64,000 bases of DNA from Escherichia coli. GTDB taxonomy: Bacteria; Pseudomonadota; Gammaproteobacteria; Enterobacterales; Enterobacteriaceae. A model generated the notes under the pieces. The model was not told where the DNA came from. It ran no database searches and saw nothing but the letters and a program-made list of their open reading frames with translations. Below, one piece after another: positions 11,903 through 45,634 of this stretch. Location: assembly GCF_003334335.1 (NCBI RefSeq), contig NZ_QOWQ01000017.1; one strand, given 5' to 3'. Numbering within the stretch: the first letter of the stretch is position 1; each line of letters starts with the position of its first letter. The position numbers were made by a program, and so were the translations under genes.

Positions 11903-12019
11903 TCACTCTGGCGCGCATACCCAATTGCGCGCCATCTCACGCTTTATCGTTTCGCCCCTCGTATCTGTTACATCCTGGCGTTACCCTTGTCGCAAAGAAG
12001 CACACAACAAGGAGCAACA

Positions 12020-12955
12020 ATGGCACTGCCAATTCTGTTAGATTGCGACCCAGGTCATGACGACGCTATCGCAATAGTTCTCGCCCTCGCCTCACCAGAG
12101 CTTGATGTCAAAGCAATTACGTCTTCCGCCGGAAACCAGACACCAGAAAAAACCTTACGCAATGTTCTGCGTATGCTGACCTTGCTTAATCGCACCGATA
12201 TTCCGGTAGCAGGCGGCGCGGTAAAACCGTTAATGCGTGAGTTGATTATCGCGGACAATGTGCACGGCGAAAGCGGTCTCGACGGCCCGGCATTACCGGA
12301 ACCGACATTCGCACCGCAAAACTGTACGGCGGTAGAGCTGATGGCGAAAACGCTGCGTGAAAGTGCGGAACCTGTCACCATTGTGTCTACCGGACCGCAA
12401 ACTAACGTTGCCTTGCTGCTCAATAGCCATCCGGAACTGCATAGCAAAATTGCCCGTATCGTGATTATGGGTGGCGCTATGGGGCTGGGTAACTGGACGC
12501 CTGCGGCTGAATTTAATATTTACGTTGACCCGGAAGCGGCAGAAATTGTCTTCCAGTCAGGGATCCCGGTGGTGATGGCCGGTCTGGATGTTACTCATAA
12601 AGCACAAATCCACGTTGAAGACACCGAGCGTTTCCGCGCGATTGGTAACCCTGTTTCAACCATTGTTGCCGAACTGCTGGATTTCTTCCTCGAATATCAT
12701 AAAGACGAAAAATGGGGCTTTGTCGGCGCACCACTGCATGACCCATGCACCATCGCCTGGCTGTTGAAACCGGAGTTATTTACCTCTGTTGAGCGCTGGG
12801 TTGGCGTGGAAACACAGGGGAAATATACCCAGGGTATGACGGTTGTTGATTATTATTATCTGACAGGCAATAAACCGAATGCCACCGTAATGGTCGATGT
12901 TGATCGTCAGGGCTTTGTTGATTTACTGGCTGATCGTCTGAAATTTTACGCTTAA
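12020..12955 (+). CDS. rihA: pyrimidine-specific ribonucleoside hydrolase
   Basis: Start ATG 12020 after aaggag RBS; N-terminal DCDPGHDD nucleoside hydrolase motif. Confidence 0.93.
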
Positions 12956-13038
12956 CACACGTCATTGATTAAGATCACCACGCGTTACCTGGGTGGTCTT
13001 AATCTGTTTATCTCTTTTTCTTTCAAGATATAAATGCA

Positions 13039-14709
13039 ATGGATAATGCAGAACTCGCCATTGGTATCGATCTCGGTACTACCAATAGTTTAATTGCCGT
13101 CTGGAAAGACGGTGCCGCGCAATTAATTCCAAATAAGTTCGGTGAATATTTAACACCATCCATAATTAGCATGGATGAAAATAATCATATTTTAGTCGGA
13201 AAACCGGCTGTATCACGGCGTACTTCGCATCCGGATAAAACGGCAGCGTTATTTAAACGTGCAATGGGCAGTAATACCAACTGGCGGTTAGGCAGCGACA
13301 CATTTAACGCGCCAGAACTGTCCTCTTTGGTATTACGCTCATTAAAAGAAGATGCCGAAGAATTTCTGCAACGTCCGATTAAAGATGTGGTGATCTCCGT
13401 TCCGGCTTATTTCAGCGATGAACAACGCAAGCATACCCGTTTAGCAGCGGAGTTAGCCGGGTTAAATGCGGTACGCTTAATTAATGAACCCACAGCAGCT
13501 GCGATGGCGTATGGCCTGCATACCCAACAAAATACCCGTTCGCTGGTGTTTGATCTCGGTGGCGGCACGTTTGACGTTACGGTGCTTGAGTACGCCACGC
13601 CGGTGATTGAAGTTCACGCCTCCGCTGGCGACAACTTTCTTGGTGGCGAAGATTTTACCCATATGCTGGTCGATGAGGTTTTAAAACGCGCGGATGTCGC
13701 CAGGACCACGCTTAACGAGAGTGAACTGGCAGCCTTGTACGCCTGTGTGGAAGCGGCAAAATGTAGCAATCAATCGCCATTGCACATTCGCTGGCAGTAT
13801 CAGGAAGAAACGCGGGAATGCGAATTTTACGAGAACGAACTGGAAGATTTGTGGTTGCCGCTGCTCAATCGCTTGCGAGTGCCGATTGAACAGGCGTTGC
13901 GCGATGCGCGTCTGAAGCCGAGTCAAATCGACAGTCTGGTGCTGGTTGGCGGCGCGTCACAAATGCCGCTGGTGCAGCGAATCGCCGTGCGTCTGTTTGG
14001 CAAATTACCGTATCAAAGTTACGATCCGAGCACCATTGTCGCGCTGGGCGCAGCAATCCAGGCCGCCTGCCGCTTACGCAGTGAAGATATTGAAGAGGTA
14101 ATCCTCACTGATATTTGCCCTTACTCGTTGGGCGTTGAAGTTAACCGCCAGGGCGTTTCCGGCATTTTCTCGCCGATTATTGAACGAAACACCACTGTGC
14201 CCGTGTCGCGTGTAGAAACTTATTCAACCATGCACCCGGAACAGGATTCAATTACGGTTAACGTCTATCAGGGAGAAAACCACAAAGTTAAAAACAACAT
14301 TCTGGTGGAATCCTTCGATGTGCCGTTGAAGAAAACCGGGGCTTATCAGTCGATTGATATTCGCTTTAGTTATGATATCAACGGGTTGCTTGAAGTTGAC
14401 GTGCTTCTGGAAGACGGCAGCGTTAAGTCCAGAGTGATTAACCACAGCCCGGTAACATTGAGCGCGCAGCAGATTGAAGAGAGTCGGACGCGGTTATCCG
14501 CATTGAAAATTTATCCGCGCGATATGCTCATCAATCGCACCTTTAAAGCCAAACTGGAAGAGTTGTGGGCGCGGGCGCTGGGTGACGAGCGAGAAGAGAT
14601 CGGCCGGGTGATCACCGATTTTGATGCGGCGTTGCAGTCAAACGATATGGCCCGCGTGGATGAAGTTCGGCGGCGGGCGAGCGATTATTTAGCCATTGAG
14701 ATCCCATAA
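13039..14709 (+). CDS. hscC: Hsp70-family chaperone HscC
   Basis: 556 aa; Hsp70 signatures IGIDLGTTNS and DLGGGTFD; recognised as HscC, not DnaK or HscA. Confidence 0.93.
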   Translation: MDNAELAIGIDLGTTNSLIAVWKDGAAQLIPNKFGEYLTPSIISMDENNHILVGKPAVSRRTSHPDKTAALFKRAMGSNTNWRLGSDTFNAPELSSLVLRSLKEDAEEFLQRPIKDVVISVPAYFSDEQRKHTRLAAELAGLNAVRLINEPTAAAMAYGLHTQQNTRSLVFDLGGGTFDVTVLEYATPVIEVHASAGDNFLGGEDFTHMLVDEVLKRADVARTTLNESELAALYACVEAAKCSNQSPLHIRWQYQEETRECEFYENELEDLWLPLLNRLRVPIEQALRDARLKPSQIDSLVLVGGASQMPLVQRIAVRLFGKLPYQSYDPSTIVALGAAIQAACRLRSEDIEEVILTDICPYSLGVEVNRQGVSGIFSPIIERNTTVPVSRVETYSTMHPEQDSITVNVYQGENHKVKNNILVESFDVPLKKTGAYQSIDIRFSYDINGLLEVDVLLEDGSVKSRVINHSPVTLSAQQIEESRTRLSALKIYPRDMLINRTFKAKLEELWARALGDEREEIGRVITDFDAALQSNDMARVDEVRRRASDYLAIEIP

Positions 14710-14713
14710 ACAC

Positions 14714-14752
14714 GGCTGCCGGATGCGGCGTAAACGCTGCATCCGGCATCGG
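14714..14752. repeat. REP element between convergent hscC and djlC
   Basis: gctgccggatgcggcgtaaacgctgcatccggcatc, near-perfect REP palindrome. Confidence 0.7.
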
Positions 14753-14768
14753 CGCAAAAAACACATCG

Positions 14769-16220
14769 TCAGCTAAACAACATCGCGATTTTGCCGAGAG
14801 CATAACCTATCACCAGCACCGTTAAACTGATTTTGATAATGCTGGTAATGCTCTGTGGTTTTTCACCCTCATCATTTTTTTCTTCATGATTTTCAGGTGT
14901 TGGCTCATCGACATCTTCATCCTCCGGCTCGAGTTTCACTTTCGTCAAAAGCATCCGGGTGACAATGGCCTCTAATGGATGAGCATCTCCGCCTTCCAGC
15001 CTTGTATTAAGACGGGCCAGCATCTCTTGTTTCGGAAACGCTTCAAGTACTACCTGTTCCGCTACCCGATACAAATCCAGGAACGGTGAATCTTGCTCTG
15101 TCTCGCTACCGACTCTCGATTTCCACCACGCCCATGCTTTGCGCTTGAAGAATAACGACTCAATAAACGATTGACCTAACGGCGATAATTTTCCGCTATG
15201 TAAAATCTCCGCCCATAACAGCCGCGTCCGGGCGCTCTCACCAGGAACATATTTCAGCGGTTGACCTTGCGCATCTACCATGCTCCGCGCTTCGATAACC
15301 ATCACTAATAACGCGAAATAATCCGGGCAATGACGCTTGCTCCACTGCAACAACAAATTATCAGCTTGTATAGATGGGTAACTTTCCCAGTACGCGCAGA
15401 GATCGGCAAGCAGGCTTTCCCCCTCGCCGCAGTACAAACGTTGTGCACACAAGTAATACCGGGCATCTTCGCTTTCTGGTTCTTCCGTTTGCCACTGTTG
15501 AGCGACAGGAATGAGTTCCGCCATACCTGTTTGCACCGAGCTGTACCAGCGCAACAGTTTGCGATGTAACTTTGCATCATCAGGAATTAACCACGGACCT
15601 TCCATCGCCAAAAACGCAGTGACATAGTCAGGATGGTAACGGCAGCAACGTTCCAGCGCGAAGTAATACTCAACAGTCTGGTTCTGCAACGCAATGGGAT
15701 ATTCCAGAAGGCTAAGGAAATCGAAACAATCACCAGCCTGAATGGCCTCAAGAAAAGCCTCCCTTTCTTCCTCATCCATTCCTTCGCTGTCATTAAATGA
15801 ATGCCAGTTCAAACGCTCTGCCAGCAAAGAAGCACAATTTAATGAAAGATATCGCGCTTCTATGGCGATTGCACACAGCGGCCAGCGTAATTGATCGACA
15901 TCCTCCATGTTCCAGGTATTTAATTGCTGAATAAATTTCTGCCAGGCGGAAGGCTGAAAACGATCACTTTCTGAATCCAGTAATGTCCTGAATGCACGTA
16001 GTATTTCATGTTCAACGGCAGCATCTTTTTCTTCATCATCTGCTTCCTCGACAGGATTTACCGCCAGTCGCAGGGCCTCTTCATAGGCCTGGCGTAATGC
16101 TTTAAACCCTTGCGGATCGGTTTCGGGATGACACAACGGTAAGCGAGCAAGATAAGCCTGGCGGATAATGTCTATTTGCGTCGTGCTTTCAATTTCGAGG
16201 ATTTGCCAACATGTTTTCAT
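14769..16220 (-). CDS. djlC: J-domain-like co-chaperone of HscC, C-terminal membrane anchor
   Basis: 483 aa; N-terminal J-like domain with HPE tripeptide, C-terminal hydrophobic tail; paralogue of djlB; 4-nt overlap with ybeU. Confidence 0.88.
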
Positions 16221-16924
16221 AGGTCGCTCACATCCTTAAGCGTTACCGGGCATTCAGACTGGACAGTTAATGGCTGCCAGGGAAGCGTGGCATAGAAACG
16301 ATCGCTTCCCGCTGCCAGCTCTTCGAACATACGACTCCCGGCGCTATCGTATTTGTACAGGGTTAGCGCCTCGCGTAGCGAAGTGTTGTCTTCGCACTGA
16401 GAAGATTGCCAGTAGAGACGTCCTAACGAATAGGCGGAAAAATAGTGCATCCAGCTGTGATAGTAATGGTGAGCTCGTACATAGACGCGCGATTGCAGCC
16501 ATAAACTCTCTTCTTCCGTCAGCCACTTGTTGAGCACACCGACCCGTGACAGAAACCCCATTCGAACATAATCCCAGGCTTTGATTCCCCCTTCCCCACA
16601 GCACATAGCGGTTTGGGCAACGAATTGGGTATAAATCAACCCTCTCTCCGAGCCACCAGCAATTAATGCTTTCCACTCTTCAGGGGAAGAGCGATGCCAT
16701 GTCAGATATAAGCCAGCTAAATCATTGGCATGACCATCATCAGTCATCTGATAAATAGTCTGAATTAAATCATCACGATTATTTATTCCCCAGGATGATG
16801 AGAGCTCGAATTCTTTTATCCCAGTATACATTTTTGGCGAGTCATGCGCGGGTTTGCAACCCTGATTAAGTATTTCCATGGGCGCAGAAAGCGCAAAAAG
16901 AAGATATTGTTCTTCCTTATTCAT
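16217..16924 (-). CDS. ybeU: DUF1266-family protein
   Basis: 235 aa; clear paralogue of YbeR in this window; translationally coupled to djlC. Confidence 0.88.
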
Positions 16925-17025
16925 TTGTTAATAATCCCTTAAGTGCATTAACTGACTACTTTTTTATTATTGATGAGTATAAACTTGACGCTTTCAAAAT
17001 AAAAAGAAAATCGAAGCATTCACAC

Positions 17026-17580
17026 ATGAATAAAAAATTAATGTATATATTCGCAATTTTTATAGTTGCAGCAATTACCTGTATTAGCCAACCCAAGAAA
17101 ACGACGTTGCGTGATAAAGCCATGGTGAATTATGCCTTTGATTATTTAAGCTCACCGGGCAGTCTTCCATTCACCACGGCAGCCACGGAGCTTTCCGCGA
17201 TTCATGGTCACTCAACGTCGCAATATCGCCTTGGAGAATTTTATCTTCATGGTAGCGACGGTAAACCACTGGATTATACACAGGCGAGATACTGGTATGA
17301 GCAATCAGCGGAACAGGAAAATCCACGCGCGCAAAGTAAACTGGGGTGGATCTACCTCAAAGGTCTGGGGGTCAAACCCGACACCCGTAAAGCAATTCTC
17401 TGGTATAAGGAAGCAGCTGAACAAGGGTATGCTCATGCTCAATATACTTTAGGTTTGATCTACAGAAATGGCTCAGGTATTAATGTTAACCATTATGAAT
17501 CTCAAAAATGGTTAAAACTGGCCGCCAAACAACATTACAAAAATGCGGAAAGATTACTTGCCGGGCTTCCCGCACATTAA
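17026..17580 (+). CDS. ybeT: Sel1-repeat (TPR-like) protein
   Basis: 184 aa with N-terminal signal/TM segment and Sel1 repeats ([30 protein letters not shown]); AT-rich gene. Confidence 0.85.
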
Positions 17581-17589
17581 CGTCGACTG

Positions 17590-19017
17590 TCACCCGAACA
17601 GATGGAGTATTTTCCCTATCAAACCAGCAAAGATAAAAATATAGAAAATAATTTTAATGATGCCCAGACAGCCTGGCCCACCATCGTCAACGGGCATTGG
17701 CTGCGGTTGCGGCTCCGGTTCAACAGTTTGCTTCTCGGTAAAATTCGCCGCCTGAATTAATAATCGACGAATAATTAATGCTTCCAGTGGACAACGATTT
17801 TCTGCATCAAGGCGGCTCACAATCGGCATTAATGATTCTTCTGTAGGTTGGCAGGCCTGCACTAATTGTTTGGCAACTAGATATAATGGCCATAAGGTAT
17901 GTTCTGTATCACGCGTGAGTGAGATCCGCGGCTTACGTCCTTTGTGCAAAACCATCTCGACCAGTGAACGCCCCAGCGCAGAGAGTTTTTCATCGCTGAG
18001 TATTTCGTATAAATGAAAACGCGTACGGGCGCTGTCGCCGGGGACATAAAGTAGCGGTTTTCCCTGATCGTTAACCAGATCACGCGCTTCAATCATCATC
18101 ACCAGTAATGGGTAATAATCGACCCGATGCTGACGGCACCATTGCAACATTAAAGCATCCGCCTGGGTGGAGGGATACTCGCGCCAGTAGTCACAAAGTT
18201 CTGCCAACAGGCTTTCGCCTTCTCCACAATAGACGCGTTGCGCGTATTCATAATAAGGCGCATCTTCATTATCAGGTTCAGTTTCCCGCCATGACTGGGC
18301 GTAATCCAGAAGTTCGGGGATATCCAGGCGACCTGCGCTATACCAGCGGAGTAAATTTCTGTGCAGTTTTGCATCATCGGGGATAATCACTGCGCGATGT
18401 TGCGCTAAATACAATGTCAGCCATTGTGGATGCGATGACCAAATCCGAGCGAACATTTGGTAAAAATCGATGGTGTCATTTTGCACGGCAACGGGCAGAT
18501 GCAGAATGGTCTGGAAGTTAAAAACATTCCCCTTCGCAATGGCATATAAAAAGGATTCCAGTTCTTCTTCGTCTATTTCCCCGGTATTTTCCTCCTGTAA
18601 CCACCGCAATCTTTCTGCTAATAACACCACGCACTCGAAGGATAAATGGGCAGTGTTCATGGCGATTGTGCACAGCGACCAGCGTAATTCATCAATCTCC
18701 TCCATCGAGCAATAATTTAATTGCTGAATGAATCGCTGCCAGGCGGAGGGCAGAAAACGTTCACTATCAGAGGCAAGTAACGCACGAAAGGCGAGCAGAA
18801 TTTCATGTTCTGCTACCTCATATTCTTCTGGTTGCCAAACAGATTTAGCAGGCGACTGCGCAATCCGTAGCGCCTCCTCATACGCCTGACGAAGTTGTTT
18901 AAAACCCTGCGGATCGGTTTCTGGATGAAAGGACGGTAACAGCGCCAGATAAGCGCGGCGGATAATATCGACGTCAGTCGTTTCCTCTATATCGAGGATC
19001 TTCCAGCAATTTTTCAT
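17590..19017 (-). CDS. djlB: J-domain-like co-chaperone, C-terminal membrane anchor
   Basis: 475 aa; paralogue of djlC with same HPE tripeptide and hydrophobic C-terminus; 4-nt overlap with ybeR. Confidence 0.88.
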
Positions 19018-19721
19018 AGGTCGCTCATATCCTTAAGCGTTTCCGGGCATGCAGAATAGTAAGCCAATGGTTGCCAGGACAAGGTAGGGTAATACGCATC
19101 ATCACTGGCAAATAATTGATAAAACATATCATTGCCGGAATCGTCGTATTCTTTACGCGCTAAGAATTCGCGTAATAAAGGCAGATGATCATCTTCGGGA
19201 GACTGCCAATATTGCCGACCAAAGGTATAACCGGCAAAGTATTGCCGCCAGTTACTATAATAACGTAGAGCCCGTAGATGAATGCGCGACTGGATCCATA
19301 GACTTTCTTCTTCGCTCAACCAGTTATTAAGTACGCCCATTCGGCTTAAAAAACCCATCCGGACATAATCCCAGGCTTTGATTCCCCCTTCGCCACAGCA
19401 TTCGGCGGTGCTGGCGACAAATTGCGCATAAGCCTGACCTTGCTCATTTAGTTCAGCAAGATAGTCACGCCATTCACATGGCGAATAACGAAACCAGCGG
19501 TGATAAAACCCTGCCAACCGAGCGGCATGACCGTTATCGATCATTCGGTGAATTGTGCGCAGCAGGTCATCACGGTCATCAATTCCCCATGAGGAAGAAA
19601 GGTCAAAAAAGCATGTACCTAAATACATTTTGGGTGATGAATGCGAAGGTAAACAGCATTCATTGCGTATTTCCATCGGAGTGGAAAGTGCAAACAATAT
19701 TTTTTGCGACTCCATGTCCAT
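19014..19721 (-). CDS. ybeR: DUF1266-family protein
   Basis: 235 aa; paralogue of YbeU. Confidence 0.88.
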
Positions 19722-19878
19722 ATAATTTATCCTTAAATATTCATTAAATGAATATTAGCCGCATTGCGAGGCTCGTTTATTTATACTTTTCTGACGCGAC
19801 ATAATACGCATAAAATAAGGCTTACGCAAAAATGGAACACATAAAAATATAATATGTTTTATCTGCAACCATAAGGAA

Positions 19879-20862
19879 ATGATAATGATTTTCACGTCAA
19901 GTTGCTGCGATAATTTATCAATAGATGAGATTATCGAACGTGCTGAAAAAGGCGATTGCGAGGCTCAATATATTGTTGGGTTTTATTATAATCGCGATAG
20001 CGCAATTGATTCTCCGGACGACGAAAAAGCCTTTTACTGGCTGAAGCTGGCCGCTGAGCAAGGTCATTGTGAAGCACAGTATTCCTTAGGGCAAAAGTAT
20101 ACCGAGGATAAAAGCCGTCATAAAGATAATGAGCAAGCCATCTTCTGGCTGAAAAAAGCTGCCCTACAAGGCCATACTTTCGCTTCCAACGCCCTTGGCT
20201 GGACACTGGATCGTGGAGAAGCCCCCAATTATAAAGAAGCGGTTGTCTGGTATCAGATAGCCGCGGAGAGCGGAATGTCTTATGCGCAAAATAATCTTGG
20301 GTGGATGTACAGAAATGGCAACGGAGTCGCAAAAGACTATGCGCTGGCATTTTTCTGGTACAAACAAGCTGCATTACAAGGCCATAGTGACGCGCAAAAC
20401 AATCTGGCCGATCTTTATGAAGACGGAAAAGGCGTTGCTCAAAACAAGACACTCGCCGCATTCTGGTATTTGAAAAGCGCACAGCAGGGTAATCGGCACG
20501 CCCAGTTTCAAATTGCATGGGATTATAACGCTGGCGAAGGGGTGGACCAGGACTATAAGCAAGCGATGTACTGGTATCTGAAGGCTGCCGCTCAGGGGAG
20601 CGTCGGCGCTTACGTCAACATCGGTTATATGTATAAACACGGACAAGGCGTTGAGAAAGATTATCAGGCTGCCTTTGAATGGTTTACGAAAGCCGCTGAA
20701 TGCAATGACGCCACTGCCTGGTATAACCTGGCCATTATGTATCACTACGGAGAAGGAAGACCTGTCGATCTCCGACAGGCTCTCGACCTGTATCGTAAAG
20801 TTCAGTCATCCGGAACCAGAGATGTCAGTCAGGAAATTCGTGAGACTGAAGATTTACTGTAG
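19879..20862 (+). CDS. ybeQ: Sel1-repeat (TPR-like) protein
   Basis: 327 aa with about seven Sel1 repeats (AQYxxG...G); exact start (M1 or M3) uncertain. Confidence 0.85.
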   Translation: MIMIFTSSCCDNLSIDEIIERAEKGDCEAQYIVGFYYNRDSAIDSPDDEKAFYWLKLAAEQGHCEAQYSLGQKYTEDKSRHKDNEQAIFWLKKAALQGHTFASNALGWTLDRGEAPNYKEAVVWYQIAAESGMSYAQNNLGWMYRNGNGVAKDYALAFFWYKQAALQGHSDAQNNLADLYEDGKGVAQNKTLAAFWYLKSAQQGNRHAQFQIAWDYNAGEGVDQDYKQAMYWYLKAAAQGSVGAYVNIGYMYKHGQGVEKDYQAAFEWFTKAAECNDATAWYNLAIMYHYGEGRPVDLRQALDLYRKVQSSGTRDVSQEIRETEDLL

Positions 20863-20931
20863 AGATAAAAACAAGGGCCGGGGAATTTCATTCGGCCCAT
20901 ATTCTCTTTATTGCTGTGCGAAATCAGACTA

Positions 20932-21414
20932 TTACGGCTCAAACGGGCGTCTCTGGAACTGGTCATGACCACATTTCGGGCATAGCGTCAGCACTTCCGG
21001 TGTGTAGATCGGGAGATGGAAGTGACATTTCTCGCAGACCAGATTTCCCAGCCCGACCACTTCTCCGCTGTGATAAACCCCATGATGATTGAGGTCCTGG
21101 AAAACTTCGCGCCATTCAAGCTGCGTTTTATCGGTGATGTCTGCCAGCTCCTGCCACAAGCTTTCTTTAATCACCCGCATAAAGACGCTGTCAGATTCTT
21201 CTTTCAGGCTCTCTTCATAGCTCATGGCGAACTCTTCCAGGTCACGTCTGACAGCTCGCGTCAGCTCATCGACCTCGGTTCGCGTTAACTCCCCTGTTTT
21301 TATTACGCGCTCGCGCGCCTGTTCCACCAGTGCGTCGATATCACGTTCGCCATTGCGCAGGCGTTCGCTCAGTGACGCAACCAGTTCACGGTAATATTGA
21401 GCAACCTTGTTCAT
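20932..21414 (-). CDS. ybeL: zinc-ribbon DUF1451-family protein
   Basis: 160 aa with C-terminal CxxC...CPKC zinc-ribbon; recognised YbeL. Confidence 0.88.
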   Translation of the reverse strand: MNKVAQYYRELVASLSERLRNGERDIDALVEQARERVIKTGELTRTEVDELTRAVRRDLEEFAMSYEESLKEESDSVFMRVIKESLWQELADITDKTQLEWREVFQDLNHHGVYHSGEVVGLGNLVCEKCHFHLPIYTPEVLTLCPKCGHDQFQRRPFEP

Positions 21415-21648
21415 CGTTTCATCTCCCGGGTCGTTAACTGACTATAATAATAGACGTTCTTTGTTCCTTGCTTTGCTAATACGCCCACAAACTCTGTAAA
21501 TTAATGTATGAATAATCCGGGCATCATTTCAACGTCGAGTGCGCGAAAGGCTGTTTTGACGCGGACGTTTGGGCTATGCTATGCGGATCTGAAAAACCAC
21601 CTCAACGCTACATTTGTAGCCGTATTGAAAACAGGACCACTGGCTGCC

Positions 21649-24231
21649 ATGCAAGAGCAATACCGCCCGGAAGAGATAGAATCCAAAGTACAGCTTCATT
21701 GGGATGAGAAGCGCACATTTGAAGTAACCGAAGACGAGAGCAAAGAGAAGTATTACTGCCTGTCTATGCTTCCCTATCCTTCTGGTCGACTACACATGGG
21801 CCACGTACGTAACTACACCATCGGTGACGTGATCGCCCGCTACCAGCGTATGCTGGGCAAAAACGTCCTGCAGCCGATCGGCTGGGACGCGTTTGGTCTG
21901 CCTGCGGAAGGCGCGGCGGTGAAAAACAACACCGCTCCGGCACCGTGGACGTACGACAACATCGCGTATATGAAAAACCAGCTCAAAATGCTGGGCTTTG
22001 GTTATGACTGGAGCCGCGAGCTGGCAACCTGTACGCCGGAATACTACCGTTGGGAACAGAAATTCTTCACCGAGCTGTATAAAAAAGGCCTGGTATATAA
22101 GAAGACTTCTGCGGTCAACTGGTGCCCGAACGACCAGACCGTACTGGCGAACGAACAAGTTATCGACGGCTGCTGCTGGCGCTGCGATACTAAAGTTGAA
22201 CGTAAAGAGATCCCGCAGTGGTTTATCAAAATCACTGCTTACGCTGACGAGCTGCTCAACGATCTGGATAAACTGGATCACTGGCCAGACACCGTTAAAA
22301 CCATGCAGCGTAACTGGATCGGTCGTTCCGAAGGCGTGGAGATCACCTTCAACGTTAACGACTATGACAACACGCTGACCGTTTACACTACCCGCCCGGA
22401 CACCTTTATGGGTTGTACCTACCTGGCGGTAGCTGCGGGTCATCCGCTGGCGCAGAAAGCGGCGGAAAATAATCCTGAACTGGCGGCCTTTATTGACGAA
22501 TGCCGTAACACCAAAGTTGCCGAAGCTGAAATGGCGACGATGGAGAAAAAAGGCGTCGATACTGGCTTTAAAGCGGTTCACCCATTAACGGGCGAAGAAA
22601 TTCCCGTTTGGGCAGCAAACTTCGTATTGATGGAGTACGGCACGGGCGCAGTTATGGCGGTACCGGGGCACGACCAGCGCGACTACGAGTTTGCCTCTAA
22701 ATACGGCCTGAACATCAAACCGGTTATCCTGGCAGCTGACGGCTCTGAGCCAGATCTTTCTCAGCAAGCCCTGACTGAAAAAGGCGTGCTGTTCAACTCT
22801 GGCGAGTTCAACGGTCTTGACCATGAAGCGGCCTTCAACGCCATCGCCGATAAACTGACTGCGATGGGCGTTGGCGAGCGTAAAGTGAACTACCGCCTGC
22901 GCGACTGGGGTGTTTCCCGTCAGCGTTACTGGGGCGCGCCGATTCCGATGGTGACGCTGGAAGACGGTACCGTAATGCCGACCCCGGACGACCAGCTGCC
23001 GGTGATCCTGCCGGAAGATGTGGTAATGGACGGCATTACCAGCCCGATTAAAGCAGATCCGGAGTGGGCGAAAACTACCGTTAACGGTATGCCAGCACTG
23101 CGTGAAACCGACACTTTCGACACCTTTATGGAGTCCTCCTGGTACTATGCGCGCTACACTTGCCCGCAGTACAAAGAAGGTATGCTGGATTCCGAAGCGG
23201 CTAACTACTGGCTGCCGGTGGATATCTACATTGGTGGTATTGAACACGCCATTATGCACCTGCTCTACTTCCGCTTCTTCCACAAACTGATGCGTGATGC
23301 AGGCATGGTGAACTCTGACGAACCAGCGAAACAGTTGCTGTGTCAGGGTATGGTGCTGGCAGATGCCTTCTACTATGTTGGCGAAAACGGCGAACGTAAC
23401 TGGGTTTCCCCGGTTGATGCTATCGTTGAACGTGACGAGAAAGGCCGTATCGTGAAAGCGAAAGATGCGGCAGGCCATGAACTGGTTTATACCGGCATGA
23501 GCAAAATGTCCAAGTCGAAGAACAACGGTATCGACCCGCAGGTGATGGTTGAACGTTACGGCGCGGACACCGTTCGTCTGTTTATGATGTTTGCTTCTCC
23601 GGCTGATATGACTCTCGAATGGCAGGAATCCGGTGTGGAAGGGGCTAACCGCTTCCTGAAACGTGTCTGGAAACTGGTTTACGAGCACACAGCAAAAGGT
23701 GATGTTGCGGCACTGAACGTTGATGCGCTGACTGAAAATCAGAAAGCGCTGCGTCGCGATGTGCATAAAACGATCGCTAAAGTGACCGATGATATCGGCC
23801 GTCGTCAGACCTTCAACACCGCAATTGCGGCGATTATGGAGCTGATGAACAAACTGGCGAAAGCACCAACCGATGGCGAGCAGGATCGCGCTCTGATGCA
23901 GGAAGCACTGCTGGCCGTTGTCCGTATGCTTAACCCGTTCACCCCGCACATCTGCTTCACGCTGTGGCAGGAACTGAAAGGCGAAGGCGATATCGACAAC
24001 GCGCCGTGGCCGGTTGCTGACGAAAAAGCGATGGTGGAAGACTCCACGCTGGTCGTGGTGCAGGTTAACGGTAAAGTCCGTGCCAAAATCACCGTTCCGG
24101 TGGACGCAACGGAAGAACAGGTTCGCGAACGTGCTGGCCAGGAACATCTGGTAGCAAAATATCTTGATGGCGTTACTGTACGTAAAGTGATTTACGTACC
24201 AGGTAAACTCCTCAATCTGGTCGTTGGCTAA
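21649..24231 (+). CDS. leuS: leucyl-tRNA synthetase
   Basis: 860 aa from ATG 21649; HMGH and KMSKS class I motifs; ORF-track 47-codon upstream extension rejected. Confidence 0.95.
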
Positions 24232-34153: not shown

Positions 34154-34795
34154 TTGTATCAGGATAAAATTCTTGTCCGCCAGCTCGGTCTTCAGCCTTA
34201 CGAGCCAATCTCCCAGGCTATGCATGAATTCACCGATACCCGCGATGATAGTACCCTTGATGAAATCTGGCTGGTCGAGCACTATCCGGTATTCACCCAA
34301 GGTCAGGCAGGAAAAGCGGAGCACATTTTAATGCCGGGTGATATTCCGGTGATCCAGAGCGATCGCGGTGGGCAGGTGACTTATCACGGGCCGGGGCAAC
34401 AGGTGATGTATGTGTTGCTTAACCTGAAACGCCGTAAACTCGGTGTGCGTGAACTGGTGACCTTGCTTGAGCAAACAGTGGTGAATACCCTGGCTGAACT
34501 GGGTATAGAAGCGCATCCTCGGGCTGACGCGCCAGGTGTCTATGTTGGGGAAAAGAAAATTTGCTCACTGGGTTTACGTATTCGACGCGGTTGTTCATTC
34601 CACGGTCTGGCATTAAACGTCAATATGGATCTTTCACCATTTTTACGTATTAATCCTTGTGGGTATGCCGGAATGGAAATGGCTAAAATATCACAATGGA
34701 AACCCGAAGCGACGACTAATAATATTGCTCCACGTTTACTGGAAAATATTTTAGCGCTACTAAACAATCCGGACTTCGAATATATTACCGCTTAA
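34154..34795 (+). CDS. lipB: octanoyltransferase (lipoyl(octanoyl) transferase)
   Basis: 213 aa, TTG start; recognised LipB. Confidence 0.92.
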
Positions 34796-35053
34796 TTCCA
34801 TACATCAATGGCCCAATTTACACTGGGTCATTACTCATAATATCTGCTAATGCTTTACATCTCCTTCGCGTTTGTATATTTTCTTTATCACTTGCAGAAA
34901 TGCGGTGCCACGCCTTGCTCCGTAACTCACCCCATTGATTAACCTATTGAAATAGTTGATTATGGTGAGCAAAAGCGTTCCGTTCCAATTAGACATAAGA
35001 TTATTGTAATTTTTTAAATATTATTTTTCCATGAATAAAATTGGAGTAAGTGC

Positions 35054-36007
35054 GTGGATAGTAATAATCAAATTGAACCCTGTTTAAGCAGAAAGTCGTC
35101 AGAAGGTAAACCACAAATATTTACAACCTTACGAAATATTGATCTTAACCTTCTGACTATTTTTGAAGCTGTATATGTACATAAAGGGATCGTTAATGCA
35201 GCGAAAGTGCTTAATCTGCCCCCCTCGGCAATCAGTCAGTCTATTCAGAAACTGCGCGTTATATTCCCTGACCCATTGTTTATTCGCAAAGGCCAGGGTG
35301 TCACTCCTACCGCATTTGCGATGCATCTACATGAGTATATCAGTCAGGGCCTTGAGTCCATTCTTGGCGCGCTGGATATCGAAGGAAGCTATGATAAGCA
35401 ACGAACGATAACTATTGCGACCACTCCCTCGGTCGGAGCACTGGTCCTTCCTGTCATCTATCGGGCGATTAAAACTCACTATCCGCAGCTTTTACTGCGC
35501 AACCCGCCCATCAGCGACGCGGAAAACCAACTCAGTCAGTTTCAAACCGATCTCATCATCGATAACATGTTTTGCACCAATCGTACGGTGCAACATCATG
35601 TTCTGTTCACCGACAATATGGTGTTAATTTGCCGCGAGGGAAATCCACTACTCTCTTTAGAAGATGACAGAGAGACTATCGACAACGCTGCGCATGTACT
35701 TCTGTTACCGGAAGAGCAAAATTTCAGCGGTCTGCGGCAGAGAGTTCAAGAAATGTTTCCGGACCGGCAAATCAATTTCACCAGCTACAACATTTTGACA
35801 ATCGCTGCACTGGTTGCCAACAGTGACATGTTAGCGATTATTCCCAGCCGTTTTTATAACCTGTTTAGCCGCTGCTGGCCGCTGGAAAAACTGCCTTTTC
35901 CGTCCTTAAATGAGGAGCAAATAGATTTCTCTATCCACTACAACAAATTCAGCCTGCGTGATCCCATCCTGCACGGAGTAATAGATGTTATCCGTAATGC
36001 ATTTTGA
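35054..36007 (+). CDS. ybeF: LysR-family transcriptional regulator
   Basis: 317 aa; N-terminal HTH (LNLLTIFEAVY...SQSIQKLR) LysR signature; GTG start uncertain; AT-rich. Confidence 0.8.
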   Translation: MDSNNQIEPCLSRKSSEGKPQIFTTLRNIDLNLLTIFEAVYVHKGIVNAAKVLNLPPSAISQSIQKLRVIFPDPLFIRKGQGVTPTAFAMHLHEYISQGLESILGALDIEGSYDKQRTITIATTPSVGALVLPVIYRAIKTHYPQLLLRNPPISDAENQLSQFQTDLIIDNMFCTNRTVQHHVLFTDNMVLICREGNPLLSLEDDRETIDNAAHVLLLPEEQNFSGLRQRVQEMFPDRQINFTSYNILTIAALVANSDMLAIIPSRFYNLFSRCWPLEKLPFPSLNEEQIDFSIHYNKFSLRDPILHGVIDVIRNAF

Positions 36008-39314: not shown

Positions 39315-39875
39315 TCAAAACTGAAAGCGCATCCAGGCAAAGTACACATTGCCATTGTTGTAGGTACCCGGAATGTAGGTCATCTGAAAAGTCACTGGGC
39401 CATAACCCACGGAGGCCAATGGCAGTAGAACCGGGAGAGGGATGTAATTCCAGTTATCGCGTGCCGTTACGCCAGCGGTGAATCCCAGACCTAAATGAAA
39501 ATTTTCATCCGCCAGCGGTCGCCAGGTACTTTCCCATCCGTATCCGGCAATCGGTTCCCATTTGTTCCACGAGTCCTTAAATGCCATGGCATACAGGCCA
39601 TGCCAGTTTCCTTTTTCATCCCAACGCGACAGGCCAAAACCGCCACCCCACGGTCGCTCGTTATAGCGATCGGTTTTTTCTTTGTCGTAAGCGAAACGTG
39701 CATGCCAGGTGATGGCAGGAATATATAAATCATAATGTTCAGGCTGTTGCCAGGTTTGTGCAATATTTTCTCTAAACGTTGTCATCCACTCATCTGCGTT
39801 AGCAAAAACTTTACCAACGCTGATTAACTGAATAAAAACAAAGGAAAAGATAGCGACATATTTACTCACGTTCAT
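39315..39875 (-). CDS. pagP: lipid A palmitoyltransferase PagP (outer membrane)
   Basis: 186 aa from MNVSKY start with signal peptide; recognised. Confidence 0.92.
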
Positions 39876-40360
39876 TTGTGACCATAAAACATTTATCAAA
39901 AATCTACTACTAGCATAGCAAAGCTACAATTAACATAACCTTAATAGACCCAACATAAAGAATAATCTGAATAGCTGCTCTATTTATTTCCGCTTGTTCA
40001 AGTTAAATATTTCCGCGCATCGATTAAAGATGATGCGTCGTTTTCTGCGATGGGAATAGTCAAAAAAGAAAAACCAAGTCTTTTTTGATGACAAAATGCA
40101 ATCAAGGAAAAATTATTTTATTTTTTAACGAGATACAACAATCATCTTAACGAAGTATATAATATATATCGTCAACCTATGCTCATATTAGATTATTTTT
40201 TGAGCGCACAGCCGCAGCTAACACCATTGCAATTAACAAATTTGCATCAATCCACCATCAATTTGCACACATTATTATGTGATAATTGCCAACCGCTAAA
40301 TATGCGTTTTGTTATCTATGTATAAAAACAGCAACTTCAATGTCTTAATGGCAGTTTTTA

Positions 40361-40374
40361 TTGATTTTAATCAG
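40361..40374 (+). promoter_or_regulatory. FNR-like site TTGAT-N4-ATCAg upstream of dcuC
   Basis: 9/10 match to FNR consensus TTGATnnnnATCAA about 95 bp upstream of the dcuC start; dcuC is known to be anaerobically induced via FNR. Confidence 0.45.
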
Positions 40375-40463
40375 CATTCATCGCCAATTTATTGGGCATA
40401 TTTTTTCCTTAAGCTTTAGGAATTTTTTATTATTTACTTTGGGGCCTGGAGACAGGAAAAATT

Positions 40464-41849
40464 ATGCTGACATTCATTGAGCTCCTTATTGGGGTTGTGG
40501 TTATTGTGGGTGTAGCTCGCTACATCATTAAAGGGTATTCCGCCACTGGTGTGTTATTTGTCGGTGGCCTGTTATTGCTGATTATCAGTGCCATTATGGG
40601 GCACAAAGTGTTACCGTCCAGCCAGGCTTCAACAGGCTACAGCGCCACGGATATCGTTGAATACGTTAAAATATTACTAATGAGCCGCGGCGGCGACCTC
40701 GGCATGATGATTATGATGCTGTGTGGATTTGCCGCTTACATGACCCATATCGGCGCGAATGATATGGTGGTCAAGCTGGCGTCAAAACCATTGCAGTATA
40801 TTAACTCCCCTTACCTGCTGATGATTGCCGCCTATTTTGTCGCCTGTCTGATGTCTCTGGCCGTCTCTTCCGCAACCGGTCTGGGTGTTTTGCTGATGGC
40901 AACCCTATTTCCGGTGATGGTAAACGTTGGTATCAGTCGTGGCGCAGCTGCTGCCATTTGTGCCTCCCCGGCGGCGATTATTCTCGCACCGACTTCAGGG
41001 GATGTGGTGCTGGCGGCGCAAGCTTCCGAAATGTCGCTGATTGACTTCGCCTTCAAAACGACGCTGCCTATCTCAATTGCTGCAATTATCGGCATGGCGA
41101 TCGCCCACTTCTTCTGGCAACGTTATCTGGATAAAAAAGAGCACATCTCTCATGAAATGTTAGATGTCAGTGAAATCACCACCACTGCTCCTGCGTTTTA
41201 TGCCATTTTGCCGTTCACGCCGATCATCGGTGTACTGATTTTTGACGGTAAATGGGGTCCGCAATTACACATCATCACTATTCTGGTGATTTGTATGCTG
41301 ATTGCCTCCATTCTGGAGTTCCTCCGCAGCTTTAATACCCAGAAAGTTTTCTCTGGTCTGGAAGTGGCTTATCGCGGGATGGCAGATGCGTTTGCTAACG
41401 TGGTGATGCTGCTGGTTGCCGCTGGGGTATTCGCTCAGGGGCTTAGCACCATCGGCTTTATTCAAAGTCTGATTTCTATCGCTACCTCGTTTGGTTCGGC
41501 GAGTATCATCCTGATGCTGGTATTGGTGATTCTGACAATGCTGGCGGCAGTCACGACCGGTTCAGGCAATGCGCCGTTTTATGCGTTTGTTGAGATGATC
41601 CCGAAACTGGCGCACTCTTCCGGCATTAACCCGGCGTATTTGACTATCCCGATGCTGCAGGCGTCAAACCTTGGCCGTACCCTTTCGCCCGTTTCTGGCG
41701 TAGTCGTTGCGGTTGCCGGGATGGCGAAGATCTCGCCGTTTGAAGTCGTAAAACGCACCTCGGTACCGGTGCTTGTTGGTTTGGTGATTGTTATCGTTGC
41801 TACAGAGCTGATGGTGCCAGGAACGGCAGCAGCGGTCACAGGCAAGTAA
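40464..41849 (+). CDS. dcuC: anaerobic C4-dicarboxylate transporter DcuC
   Basis: 461 aa polytopic membrane protein; recognised. Confidence 0.93.
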   Translation: MLTFIELLIGVVVIVGVARYIIKGYSATGVLFVGGLLLLIISAIMGHKVLPSSQASTGYSATDIVEYVKILLMSRGGDLGMMIMMLCGFAAYMTHIGANDMVVKLASKPLQYINSPYLLMIAAYFVACLMSLAVSSATGLGVLLMATLFPVMVNVGISRGAAAAICASPAAIILAPTSGDVVLAAQASEMSLIDFAFKTTLPISIAAIIGMAIAHFFWQRYLDKKEHISHEMLDVSEITTTAPAFYAILPFTPIIGVLIFDGKWGPQLHIITILVICMLIASILEFLRSFNTQKVFSGLEVAYRGMADAFANVVMLLVAAGVFAQGLSTIGFIQSLISIATSFGSASIILMLVLVILTMLAAVTTGSGNAPFYAFVEMIPKLAHSSGINPAYLTIPMLQASNLGRTLSPVSGVVVAVAGMAKISPFEVVKRTSVPVLVGLVIVIVATELMVPGTAAAVTGK

Positions 41850-42570: not shown

Positions 42571-44197
42571 TAGGTTTCACTTTCGGAATATAGATTGAAA
42601 ATAAGGTACCGCAGGGATCATTATCTTCGAGAGTGATAACACCACCGCAGCGCGTTACGTAGCTGGCAATCAAGTACAACCCAATGCCATGTTCACCGGG
42701 CTCGTCAGCACGCGTACTGACCCCCTGCTCAAATATTTTGTCTCGTAGAGACTCTGGAACGCCGCAGCCCTGATCGGCGACTTCAATCACCACATCATCG
42801 CCTTCATCGCTGAGGAATAATTCAACGATCTTGTTTCCTTCATCGCTACGCAGGCTGGCTTCGAAGGCGTTATCAAGTAAATTGCCCACAATGGCTGCAA
42901 ACTCGGTGCTATCCAGTCCTGGCGGCAGTTGCGAAAGCTGGCTACCGGGGACAATGATCATTTTTAGCCCCAGTTCCCGGGCGCGCTGCACTTTACCAAA
43001 AAGCAGCCCCGCCACCTGGCGATCGGCAAACGCCTCGCGCAGGCTGTCAATAAGCTGTTGCTGGGCCTGAGACTCCCCCTGCACCATCGCCAGCACGCGA
43101 TCATACTCTTTCATCTGCAACAGACCATTGAGCGTCGACATCCAATTGAGATGCTCGTGTCGCAATGTACGAAGGCTCTCAACGTATTGTTTTATTTGCG
43201 TCAGTTGCGCATTGAGGGTGGAAATTTCGTCTTTACTACGAAAGCTGATAATGGCCCCCAGCAAATCATCACCTGAACGAATAGCTTCCCGGTTGGCAAT
43301 AACGCTCAGACCGTTAAAGTTCGCCACCACATCCTGACGTTTTTCATCAATCTGTTCGGTAAAGAAATCGGCGGGCCTGACCACTTCAACAATGGGTTTA
43401 CCCAACCATTGCCGTCCGGGGGAACTCAGCCCCAGCATCTTTCTTGCGTTACGATTGATGGCGGTAATGTAACCATGCGGATCCACCGCAATCAGCCCTT
43501 CATAAACCGAACTAAACAGCGCCTCTTGCTGACGGACCACGCGTGCGATTTGCTTTGGCTCCATGCCCATCATCTGCCGACGGATATGCGCGGCCAGGAA
43601 CCACGACAGCAACATCAGAATCCCTAACAGCACGACAAACACACCTGCCATCGGTAATAAAAACTCAGCCCGCCAGCTATCGATTTTACTCACCAGGTAG
43701 CCAATCGACACCACGCCGATGACTTTTCCATCGTCATCAAAGATTGGCGTTTTGGCGCGCATCGCCATCCCCATTGACCCTTTCCCGGTAATGAAGTAGC
43801 TCTCCCCTTTCTCCAGCGCGCCCTGTTTGGTGAACTGCATAGGATAACCAATTTTCTCCGGATTAGGATGGTAAAGGCGGATCGAGTGCCGGTCCCCAAT
43901 CACCACATAATCAAAATCGGTATCTCTTTGTAATTTGTTAGCGATGGTCGCCAGCCGTTTGTAGTCACGCGTTTTCACCGCAGAGATGACACTGTCATTG
44001 GAGGCAATAATTTTCGCCTGATTCATTGCCATGTCGCGTACATGAAGCGTTAAATAGTCCTCAAAACTGGCCGTAAAATATTGCGCCAGGGCTGCAATGA
44101 CAAATATTGAGAACACCAGAATCAGCAAAAAGATACGCAGCGGAAATGCCAGTCTTTGGAAAAATGCAAACTGTTTATTCTCGTTAAGCTGCAACAT
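42539..44197 (-). CDS. dpiB: two-component sensor histidine kinase DpiB (CitA)
   Basis: 552 aa from ATG with aaggaaaa RBS; two TM segments flanking periplasmic domain, H-box (LRHEHLNWMSTL) and HATPase; 32-nt overlap with dpiA. Confidence 0.92.
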   Translation of the reverse strand: MLQLNENKQFAFFQRLAFPLRIFLLILVFSIFVIAALAQYFTASFEDYLTLHVRDMAMNQAKIIASNDSVISAVKTRDYKRLATIANKLQRDTDFDYVVIGDRHSIRLYHPNPEKIGYPMQFTKQGALEKGESYFITGKGSMGMAMRAKTPIFDDDGKVIGVVSIGYLVSKIDSWRAEFLLPMAGVFVVLLGILMLLSWFLAAHIRRQMMGMEPKQIARVVRQQEALFSSVYEGLIAVDPHGYITAINRNARKMLGLSSPGRQWLGKPIVEVVRPADFFTEQIDEKRQDVVANFNGLSVIANREAIRSGDDLLGAIISFRSKDEISTLNAQLTQIKQYVESLRTLRHEHLNWMSTLNGLLQMKEYDRVLAMVQGESQAQQQLIDSLREAFADRQVAGLLFGKVQRARELGLKMIIVPGSQLSQLPPGLDSTEFAAIVGNLLDNAFEASLRSDEGNKIVELFLSDEGDDVVIEVADQGCGVPESLRDKIFEQGVSTRADEPGEHGIGLYLIASYVTRCGGVITLEDNDPCGTLFSIYIPKVKPNDSSINPIDR

Positions 44198-44575
44198 TGT
44201 TTTCCTTGCGGGTTGTCCCGAGCCTCTTTGACGGATGTAATTAAAATGTTGAATCAAAATACATAGATATTAATTATGATCGTGGCAAATTTTATTCATT
44301 AAATCAATTAAATCACTTAAACCTGCGAGTCATTTCGTAATTACATTAATTAAAAAACTTAAAATCATTAAATAAATAAAAAACCACTAACTCTATGTGA
44401 AATAAATCAAAATTTCACGCCGAAATACTCCTTAGGATGTATAGCGAAAGGAGAAAAAGATATACCTCGATCACCCCCTTTCTCCCAAGTGAAAATAAAA
44501 GGTTATCAGTTTGCAACATTGAACAACATTCGTTGCAAATCGATAACAACATGCACCTTCAGGATACTATTTATT

Positions 44576-45634
44576 ATGTTCGGCAATGATATTTTCACCC
44601 GCGTAAAACGTTCAGAAAATAAAAAAATGGCGGAAATCGCCCAATTCCTGCATGAAAATGATTTGAGCGTTGACACCACAGTCGAAGTATTTATTACCGT
44701 AACCCGCGATGAAAAGCTTATCGCGTGCGGTGGAATTGCCGGAAATATTATTAAATGCGTTGCTATCAGTGAATCCGTCCGCGGTGAAGGACTGGCGCTG
44801 ACATTAGCCACTGAATTGATAAACCTCGCCTATGAGCGGCACAGCACGCATCTGTTTATTTATACCAAAACCGAATACGAGGCGCTGTTCCGCCAGTGCG
44901 GTTTTTCCACGCTGACCAGCGTACCCGGCGTGATGGTGCTGATGGAAAACAGCGCCACGCGACTGAAACGCTATGCCGAATCGCTGAAAAAATTTCGTCA
45001 TCCAGGGAACAAGATTGGCTGCATTGTGATGAACGCCAATCCCTTTACGAATGGTCACCGTTATCTGATTCAACAGGCTGCGGCACAGTGCGACTGGTTG
45101 CATCTGTTTTTAGTCAAAGAAGATTCTTCACGCTTCCCCTATGAAGACCGGCTGGATTTGGTGTTAAAAGGCACCGCCGATATTCCACGCCTGACTGTGC
45201 ATCGTGGCTCCGAATACATCATCTCCCGCGCTACGTTCCCTTGCTACTTCATTAAAGAACAGAGCGTCATTAACCATTGTTACACCGAAATTGATCTGAA
45301 GATTTTCCGTCAGTACCTCGCTCCCGCGCTGGGTGTAACTCACCGCTTTGTCGGTACTGAACCCTTTTGTCGCGTTACCGCCCAGTACAACCAGGATATG
45401 CGCTACTGGCTGGAAACGCCGACTATCTCCGCACCGCCCATCGAACTGGTTGAAATTGAGCGGCTGCGTTACCAGGAGATGCCGATATCCGCTTCCCGGG
45501 TACGTCAACTGCTGGCGAAAAACGATCTCACGGCTATCGCGCCGCTGGTCCCTGCAGTCACGCTGCATTATTTGCAGAACCTGCTTGAGCACTCCCGCCA
45601 GGACGCGGCAGCTCGTCAAAAGACCCCCGCATGA
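44576..45634 (+). CDS. citC: [citrate (pro-3S)-lyase] ligase
   Basis: 352 aa from MFGNDIF; ORF-track 29-codon upstream extension rejected. Confidence 0.9.
   Translation: MFGNDIFTRVKRSENKKMAEIAQFLHENDLSVDTTVEVFITVTRDEKLIACGGIAGNIIKCVAISESVRGEGLALTLATELINLAYERHSTHLFIYTKTEYEALFRQCGFSTLTSVPGVMVLMENSATRLKRYAESLKKFRHPGNKIGCIVMNANPFTNGHRYLIQQAAAQCDWLHLFLVKEDSSRFPYEDRLDLVLKGTADIPRLTVHRGSEYIISRATFPCYFIKEQSVINHCYTEIDLKIFRQYLAPALGVTHRFVGTEPFCRVTAQYNQDMRYWLETPTISAPPIELVEIERLRYQEMPISASRVRQLLAKNDLTAIAPLVPAVTLHYLQNLLEHSRQDAAARQKTPA

Follow-up and report, generated by a model that had tools for sequence, protein, structure and literature searches.

Introduction

HscC is one of just three Hsp70s of Escherichia coli, and together with the J-proteins DjlC and DjlB it forms the third E. 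coli Hsp70 system (HscC-DjlC/DjlB, Hsc62-Hsc56). The same genes are found in the stretch of DNA considered here, 64 kb of the E. coli contig NZ_QOWQ01000017.1 (the window), where an islet at positions 13039–20862 also encodes two DUF1266 proteins, YbeU and YbeR, and two Sel1-repeat proteins, YbeT and YbeQ. Cooperation of HscC with DjlC, and by inference with DjlB, has been published since 2002 (Kluck et al. 2002, reviewed in PMC8215388), so that hscC is not the orphan for which it was taken in an earlier note on this DNA. The HscC ATPase is stimulated only by DjlC, with DjlB presumed to act alike; purified DjlC on its own is reported to stimulate HscC, and HscC to prefer positively charged peptides (PMC8215388). 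The J-domain tripeptide HPE is the one tolerated replacement of HPD, and DjlC stimulates HscC (PMC13254874). Cd2+ sensitivity of hscC and djlB djlC mutants and a sporadic distribution of HscC, suggesting horizontal transfer, are likewise on record (PMC8215388, PMC13254874, PMC10410713), and the reviews of 2021 and 2026 speculate on Cd2+ detoxification and membrane clients for HscC.

The published description of the system is two-component, without DUF1266 or Sel1 genes: the three reviews (PMC8215388, PMC13254874, PMC10410713) make no mention of DUF1266, YbeU/YbeR or the Sel1 genes, and DUF1266 by name hardly occurs in the literature searched. One comparative paper, which goes no further into them, calls the five genes of Salmonella LT2 and K-12 a ‘cassette’ (PMC6935094). 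The HscC-DjlB/C partnership, the ~50% identity between DjlB and DjlC, the HPE motif and the tail anchor of both J-proteins (PMC8215388, PMC13254874, PMC10410713) are therefore not new, while a role for DUF1266 has not been published. What is new is that DUF1266 is an invariant partner, coupled by translation, and that the Sel1 genes are demoted to extras of particular lineages.

DUF1266 genes at HscC loci

We use the term triad for a DUF1266 gene that directly precedes and overlaps the gene of an HPE J-protein, where an HscC-type Hsp70 is encoded alongside. A scan of one genome from each GTDB species with a DUF1266 alignment yielded 78 loci: 61 from Pseudomonas, three from Escherichia and the others from Erwinia, Rahnella, Pectobacterium, Brenneria, Marinobacter, Bowmanella and Klebsiella spallanzanii. 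Open reading frames (ORFs) were called in these loci and compared with the proteins of the window. The order DUF1266, same-strand J-protein, HscC-type Hsp70 was present in 74 of the 78, spanning eight genera (Pseudomonas, Erwinia, Pectobacterium, Rahnella, Brenneria, Marinobacter, Klebsiella and Escherichia), and the four exceptions are all truncated loci. The Hsp70s of the triad loci are 52–61% identical to E. coli HscC and their genes are convergent in 73 of the 74, being co-directional in Marinobacter. The triad was found even around DUF1266 proteins just 22–25% identical to YbeU. No further neighbour gene family common to different genera was found at triad loci.

The junction between the two coupled genes is equally constant. 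Stop and start codons overlap by 4 nucleotides (nt) in 77 of 82 DUF1266/J-protein pairs and by 1 nt in the other five; the J-domain tripeptide is HPE in 80 of the 82, and all of the Djl proteins carry C-terminal hydrophobic segments. Outside Escherichia, Salmonella and Klebsiella the J-protein is ~880–930 amino acids (aa) long, and DjlB and DjlC match its first ~310–370 residues together with the membrane anchor.

Both DUF1266/J-protein pairs of the window fit the triad definition. The stop of ybeU (16217–16924, minus strand) overlaps the start of djlC (14769–16220, minus strand) at 16217–16220, and that of ybeR (19014–19721, minus strand) overlaps the start of djlB (17590–19017, minus strand) at 19014–19017. 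Both junctions read ...cctATGAaa..., so the 4-nt overlap and the translational coupling read from it in the earlier note hold at both and extend well beyond E. coli. While djlC abuts hscC (13039–14709, plus strand), djlB is parted from it by the ybeU/djlC pair and ybeT. Hence the constant, translationally coupled partner of the J-protein and HscC across many gamma-proteobacteria is DUF1266, and not the Sel1 proteins. Because the full triad occurs in 74 of the 78 loci and all of the exceptions are truncated, this gene order supports a probable functional tie of DUF1266 to the HscC system.

Some of the loci hold additional features. In 43 of the 74 triad loci, from Pseudomonas, the 3′ ends of the convergent Djl and HscC genes share 4–7 nt, which is unusually tight (e.g. 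L019 6911–6914). In 26 loci of Pseudomonas the DUF1266 gene is closely preceded by an IbpA/IbpB-like small heat-shock gene (e.g. L018 749–1195); the product of the latter matches the NCBIfam model at 6.6e-42, under the equivalog cut-off, and the position of the gene could reflect either within-genus synteny or a chaperone neighbourhood. A third Djl-like gene sits between ybeL and ybeQ in Escherichia sp. MOD1-EC7003 (L007 3648–5986). It is split into two ORFs, one of 93 aa with an HPE J-domain and one of 344 aa with a transmembrane (TM) tail; next comes a protein of 321 aa that matches no family and whose N-terminus is signal-like. A hipBA toxin-antitoxin pair is located ~3 kb downstream in the Leminorella richardii locus (L006). 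Finally, the end of a contig labelled Paenibacillus sp. USDA918EY (L011) carries a piece of ybeU, in translation 100% identical to YbeU of E. coli, which is probably assembly contamination.

Domain organisation of HscC, the J-proteins and DUF1266

HscC, a specialised Hsp70 of 556 aa that appears under this name in RefSeq and is encoded convergently with djlC, scored 377–385 bits against the NCBIfam DnaK and HscA models, under their equivalog cut-offs of 620–822. It has Hsp70 architecture and is neither DnaK nor HscA.

The AlphaFold 2 (AF2) model of DjlC comprises a J-domain with the HPE motif (aa 1–55), an all-alpha TPR-like domain (aa ~72–430), a low-confidence acidic linker (aa 434–455) and a TM tail anchor (aa 458–482). 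The match to Pfam DnaJ is weak (E 0.036). The N-terminal J-domain fold is that of a class C J-domain protein; the canonical HPD is replaced by HPE in both DjlC and DjlB. DjlB has the motif N-terminally, as in its paralogue, and a hydrophobic C-terminal TM segment at aa 446–475.

YbeU (235 aa) matches Pfam DUF1266 (PF06889) with an E-value of 4.7e-45 over positions 2–175 of the 175 in the model. Its AF2 model is a confident all-alpha globule of 12 helices (pLDDT 93.7), for which structure comparison found no solved fold neighbours. A set of polar and aromatic residues is near-invariant in the family (W45, H65, W117, D118, R121, R127, E139, W158, W172 and W216), and the C-terminal tail carries a conserved motif with P226 and L229. 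The family is modest in size, with 373 clusters at E ≤0.001 in a representative-library search.

Possible roles of DUF1266

We consider it probable that 13039–20862 is an accessory, H-NS-silenced islet encoding a membrane-tethered Hsp70 machine of three components, for which two J-protein/DUF1266 pairs provide alternative targeting. The core of such a machine would consist of HscC, a membrane-anchored class C HPE J-protein (DjlC or DjlB) with its TPR-like scaffold, and the all-alpha DUF1266 protein (YbeU or YbeR). Coupled translation would yield DUF1266 and J-protein in fixed proportion; at the inner membrane, DUF1266 would then bind its cognate J-protein through the latter's TPR-like domain, the pair would set the target to which HscC is recruited, and the J-domain would trigger ATP hydrolysis by HscC. 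In Escherichia and Salmonella, two anciently duplicated and co-diverged pairs may thus serve as alternative targeting modules for one HscC. Physical binding of DUF1266 to the Djl proteins and the adaptor role are what we infer here.

Several points weigh against this proposal. No DUF1266-J-domain fusion is present among 41 multidomain DUF1266 proteins. More distant members of the family occur in other gene contexts or fused to Cu_amine_oxidN1, SLH or TPR domains; with such contexts and extracellular-type fusions (Cu_amine_oxidN1, SLH), the DUF1266 family is not intrinsically a chaperone cofactor. Leminorella richardii has a DUF1266 gene paired with that of a 906-aa Djl and no Hsp70 gene within 10 kb, and the third Djl-like gene of Escherichia sp. 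MOD1-EC7003 has no DUF1266 gene upstream. The locus sample is also mostly Pseudomonas (61 of 78) and was fetched by a single peptide pattern.

A stronger claim, which we put forward only tentatively and toward which we do not lean, is that the Hsp70 machine is a distinct, tripartite one tethered to the membrane, in which DUF1266 is obligatory as the third subunit and serves either as a new type of cofactor or as a dedicated, switch-like client. In its strongest form, the horizontally spreading, H-NS-silenced triad would by itself make up a stress or conflict module in which DUF1266 is the sensor or effector.

Alternatively, DUF1266 may be a dedicated HscC client and not an adaptor, as IscU is for HscB/HscA; the helical domain of the J-protein would present DUF1266, and HscC would remodel it to switch some activity. 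The near-invariant residues and the tail motif with P226 and L229 would fit this role. The genetic logic is isc-like, a specialised Hsp70 and a specialised J-protein being encoded together with one small conserved protein, and each DUF1266 has co-diverged with its own J-protein. On the other side, the preference reported for HscC is for positively charged peptides (PMC8215388), and an exposed motif of that kind was not identified in DUF1266. We regard the client role as somewhat unlikely, although the present data do not discriminate between client and adaptor and DUF1266 has no solved fold neighbour to compare.

The 1:1 production implied by the gene overlap would also suit a regulator or inhibitor under which the J-protein stays inactive pending a signal. 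Such partners have been described for other J-proteins: CbpA has CbpM, a modulator that is small, operon-encoded and dedicated to this one J-protein (PMC8215388), and the membrane-anchored Pam18 has Pam16. Against such a role, the DUF1266 fold is unrelated to that of CbpM or Pam16 and the gene is upstream, not downstream, of that for the J-protein. Moreover, since DjlC reportedly stimulates HscC when purified alone (PMC8215388, a report silent on inhibition), DUF1266 is not required for basal stimulation. We consider a regulatory or inhibitory role improbable.

Duplication of the DUF1266/J-protein pair and origin of the Sel1 genes

YbeR and YbeU can be aligned without a gap along their entire 235 aa, at 59% identity (E 1e-104). 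Full-length alignment of DjlB with DjlC gives 49% identity (E 3e-160); the N-termini of these two are nearly the same and their C-termini hydrophobic. At the DNA level the two modules are homologous and colinear, with ~67% identity across the 5′ half of the djl gene and the DUF1266 gene. The paralogy described in the earlier note is confirmed in both cases, and hscC and the six ORFs lie exactly at their stated positions. Synonymous divergence (dS) between the module paralogues is saturated.

In Salmonella, the locus reads ybeL, a divergently transcribed YbeQ-like gene (49% identity), a YbeR-like DUF1266 gene, a DjlB-like gene, a 12-bp gap, a YbeU-like DUF1266 gene, a DjlC-like gene, hscC, an extra ORF and rihA, with hscC convergent to the DjlC-like gene and without ybeT. 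Both the YbeU/DjlC-type and the YbeR/DjlB-type pair have been kept, in the same order. In a neighbour-joining tree of DUF1266 proteins, one Salmonella copy groups with YbeU, in a clade that takes in Citrobacter and Kluyvera, and the other with YbeR, together with E. fergusonii, Pseudocitrobacter and K. spallanzanii; the corresponding Djl tree is less well resolved. Because each of the two clades holds a Salmonella copy, the duplication predates the Escherichia/Salmonella split, and because the Salmonella pairs abut with no Sel1 gene between them, the duplicated unit is the DUF1266/J-protein pair. As judged from gene order and trees, then, duplication of this pair before the two genera diverged is demonstrably indicated. 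The tandem duplication proposed earlier stands for the pair and is improbable for the Sel1 genes; likewise, acquisition followed by segmental duplication is borne out as regards an accessory islet and not as a recent event.

The extra ORF between hscC and rihA in Salmonella encodes 412 aa with no family match (L004 16082–17320). A block with sugar-acid dehydratase, KdgT and sigma-54 activator genes is inserted between leuS and ybeL in the same locus (L004 3798–8276).

Within the window, a divergent Sel1 gene does lie upstream of each pair, as had been noted: ybeT (17026–17580, plus strand, 184 aa) beside ybeU, and ybeQ (19879–20862, plus strand, 327 aa) beside ybeR. In the BL21 RefSeq annotation, ybeQ starts 6 nt past the first in-frame ATG, corresponding to window position 19885. 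By Pfam, YbeT has three Sel1 repeats (PF08238) and YbeQ seven significant ones and one weak. YbeT begins with a hydrophobic segment (aa 2–23) that is missing from YbeQ, and is probably extracytoplasmic or membrane-anchored, not cytosolic.

This arrangement suggested that a Sel1/DUF1266/J-protein triad was the duplicated unit and that the Sel1 proteins belong to the HscC system as integral parts that target clients. The best YbeQ-YbeT alignment is indeed colinear (aa 56 pairs with aa 55), there is one colinear DNA match of 84 nt at 72.6% identity, TPR repeats occur on 4–5 of the 41 multidomain DUF1266 proteins, and both Sel1 genes are under purifying selection. Nevertheless, YbeQ and YbeT align at 32–36% identity in several register shifts, a likeness at the generic level of Sel1 repeats and no greater than that to unrelated Sel1 proteins, one of which, from a metagenome, outscores YbeQ against YbeT. 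A phmmer comparison of YbeQ and YbeT with all locus ORFs found no Sel1 ORF within 10 kb of a triad outside Escherichia and Salmonella. Close YbeT homologues (at least 71% identity) are restricted to the genus Escherichia, and in Klebsiella spallanzanii, where one YbeR/DjlB-type pair lies between ybeL and hscC, there is no Sel1 gene. A Sel1 gene does not, therefore, accompany each DUF1266-Djl pair in related loci, and the hydrophobic N-terminus of YbeT also speaks against a cytosolic targeting part. We regard a Sel1-inclusive unit as quite unlikely; the proposed dedicated HscC module survives with respect to DUF1266 and not to Sel1.

Most likely, the Sel1 genes lie outside the core and were added later in particular lineages, ybeQ in Escherichia and Salmonella and ybeT in Escherichia alone. 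In the simplest history, ybeQ and then ybeT were added after the pair had been duplicated. Alternatively, a Sel1-containing triad may have been duplicated and ybeT then cleanly lost in Salmonella.

The islet in the genome

The ORF list gives the gene order gltK-gltL-rihA, hscC, djlC, ybeU, ybeT, djlB, ybeR, ybeQ, ybeL, leuS. The region is 100% identical to K-12-type E. coli chromosomes and RefSeq annotates the same genes; this is the known E. coli hscC locus. The convergent hscC/djlC spacer (14710–14768, no strand assigned) has a GC content of 0.61 and holds the palindrome GCCGGATGCGGCGTAAACGCTGCATCCGGC, by the E. coli consensus a candidate repetitive extragenic palindrome (REP-like). The divergent promoter spacers ybeU/ybeT (16925–17025) and ybeR/ybeQ (19722–19878), to which again no strand is assigned, have GC contents of 0.277 and 0.293. 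A terminator-like hairpin (20875–20898, plus strand) lies 3′ of ybeQ at the right edge of the islet. It was the only useful yield of a promoter/terminator consensus scan, in which promoter-like sites were fewer than in shuffled sequences. Rfam gave no match within 12000–22000.

The two divergent spacers are within the lowest ~1% of 100-nt windows in the window, of which the overall GC content is ~50%. GC is 0.429 in ybeT, with 0.384 at third codon positions (GC3), and 0.458–0.476 in djlC, ybeU, djlB, ybeR and ybeQ, compared with 0.51–0.53 in the flanking rihA, ybeL and leuS. GC3 is 0.38–0.48 for the genes from djlC to ybeQ, against 0.51–0.62 for gltK, gltL, rihA, ybeL and leuS. The AT-richness of the Sel1 genes and spacers noted before is thereby confirmed, with ybeQ falling in the range of its neighbours; hscC itself is not AT-rich (GC 0.50, GC3 0.53). 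Overall, the islet has a GC of 0.47 versus 0.507 in the rest of the window, a deviation that is modest. Other AT-rich troughs in the window (~34500–35400, 39500–40700, 43850–44870 and 58340–60130, where 500-nt GC falls to 0.31–0.35) equal or exceed those of the islet in depth.

The islet is polymorphic in E. coli. Among 5426 complete genomes, hscC is present in 4410 (absent from 19%), djlB-ybeR is intact in 3713 and ybeU-ybeT in 4246, and the entire two-module locus is found in 3657. Strain SCU-387, without the islet, has rihA, 44 bp and then ybeL; strain DFK.1 keeps the hscC-proximal module alone. BL21 carries a collapsed single module with a frameshifted djlB/djlC hybrid and an internal stop in ybeQ, which looks like unequal recombination between the paralogues. 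Insertions of the insertion sequences (IS) IS1, IS903B and ISVsa5 were seen inside hscC, djlB/ybeR and ybeU/ybeT in several E. coli strains; these would fit a relaxation of selection on the islet within some parts of the species.

Presence/absence and composition are thus those of a horizontally acquired islet, but the mobility genes, tRNA site and flanking repeats of such an element are missing. The ORF list holds no integrase or transposase at the islet, its borders have no common direct repeat of at least 8 nt, and the island-less rihA-ybeL spacer has no word of at least 10 nt in common with the islet region. In the island-less E. coli allele (L003 3057–3100), a different hairpin lies between rihA and ybeL; its GCCGGATG...CATCCGGC arms are those of the palindrome in the hscC/djlC spacer. 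The rihA-ybeL slot holds the islet in both Escherichia and Salmonella, and in Klebsiella the islet adjoins ybeL; because of this shared position it is probably an old resident that has been sporadically lost, not a recent mobile island.

Published expression data are in line with silencing. Overexpression of SlyA raises ybeT 4.1-fold and ybeU-djlC 2.8-fold, and both are in H-NS regulon data sets (PMC5797941); in enteroaggregative E. coli (EAEC) 042 at 25 degrees C, mutation of hns derepresses a DUF1266 gene ~300-fold (PMC7582179). The view that the islet behaves as accessory, H-NS-silenced DNA is supported by these observations. All seven islet genes are under purifying selection: the ratio of non-synonymous to synonymous substitution rates (dN/dS) between E. 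coli and E. whittamii is 0.02–0.13, with 0.11 for ybeT. Such values rule out reading the genes as decaying remnants, although strains like BL21 carry broken copies.

The triad could also be read as a mobile module for conflict or defence against phage, its sensor or effector being DUF1266 or the J-protein. The patchy accessory distribution, the genomic context differing by genus, the presence/absence polymorphism in E. coli, the H-NS silencing (PMC5797941) and the membrane anchoring might point that way. Such a module is very improbable given that no PADLOC-DB model matches HscC, DjlB/C or YbeU/R (the Sel1 proteins gave only marginal, repeat-level matches to PtuA), that PHROGs returned only generic Sel1 and Hsp70 families, that there are no effector-type domains, flanking repeats or mobility genes, and that the shared slot in Escherichia and Salmonella and the position next to ybeL in Klebsiella indicate long vertical residence.

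Discussion

The conserved 4-nt overlap, which welds DUF1266 to the J-protein of HscC in every informative locus sampled, is a concrete and testable handle on this Hsp70. Being coupled to the J-protein in this way, YbeU and YbeR are candidates for a cofactor, regulator or client. If DUF1266 were indeed an obligatory subunit, it would be the missing piece for HscC, which has been without an assigned function for more than 20 years. To infer from the E. coli locus that Sel1 proteins belong to the core is natural but wrong, and the present result corrects that inference. E. coli would instead hold two ancient, alternative targeting pairs, for which natural strains lacking one pair or the whole islet are ready-made comparison material.

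Three groups of described systems resemble the one proposed here. Helical-repeat scaffolds encoded with or within an Hsp70 system recall the eukaryotic TPR/Sel1-type Hsp70 cofactors (Hop-type TPR clamps, Sel1L/Hrd3); here such scaffolds are the TPR-like middle domain of DjlC and YbeQ/YbeT. Unlike the eukaryotic cofactors, YbeQ and YbeT are lineage-specific and YbeT is apparently extracytoplasmic or membrane-anchored.

CbpA-CbpM and Pam18(Tim14)-Pam16(Tim16) each consist of a J-protein with a dedicated small partner that modulates it, and mitochondrial Pam18 is, in addition, membrane-anchored and recruits Hsp70 to a membrane site. However, DUF1266 has no sequence or fold in common with CbpM or Pam16, and gene order and the TPR-like scaffold differ as well.

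In HscA-HscB-IscU, as here, a specialised Hsp70 and J-protein are encoded with a small conserved partner, and the system works without a GrpE-type exchange factor (PMC8215388). The isc system is soluble, however, and its partner IscU is an Fe-S scaffold with an LPPVK recognition motif, whereas at the hscC locus a membrane-anchored J-protein goes with an all-alpha partner that is unrelated to IscU, and the partner gene overlaps that of the J-protein.

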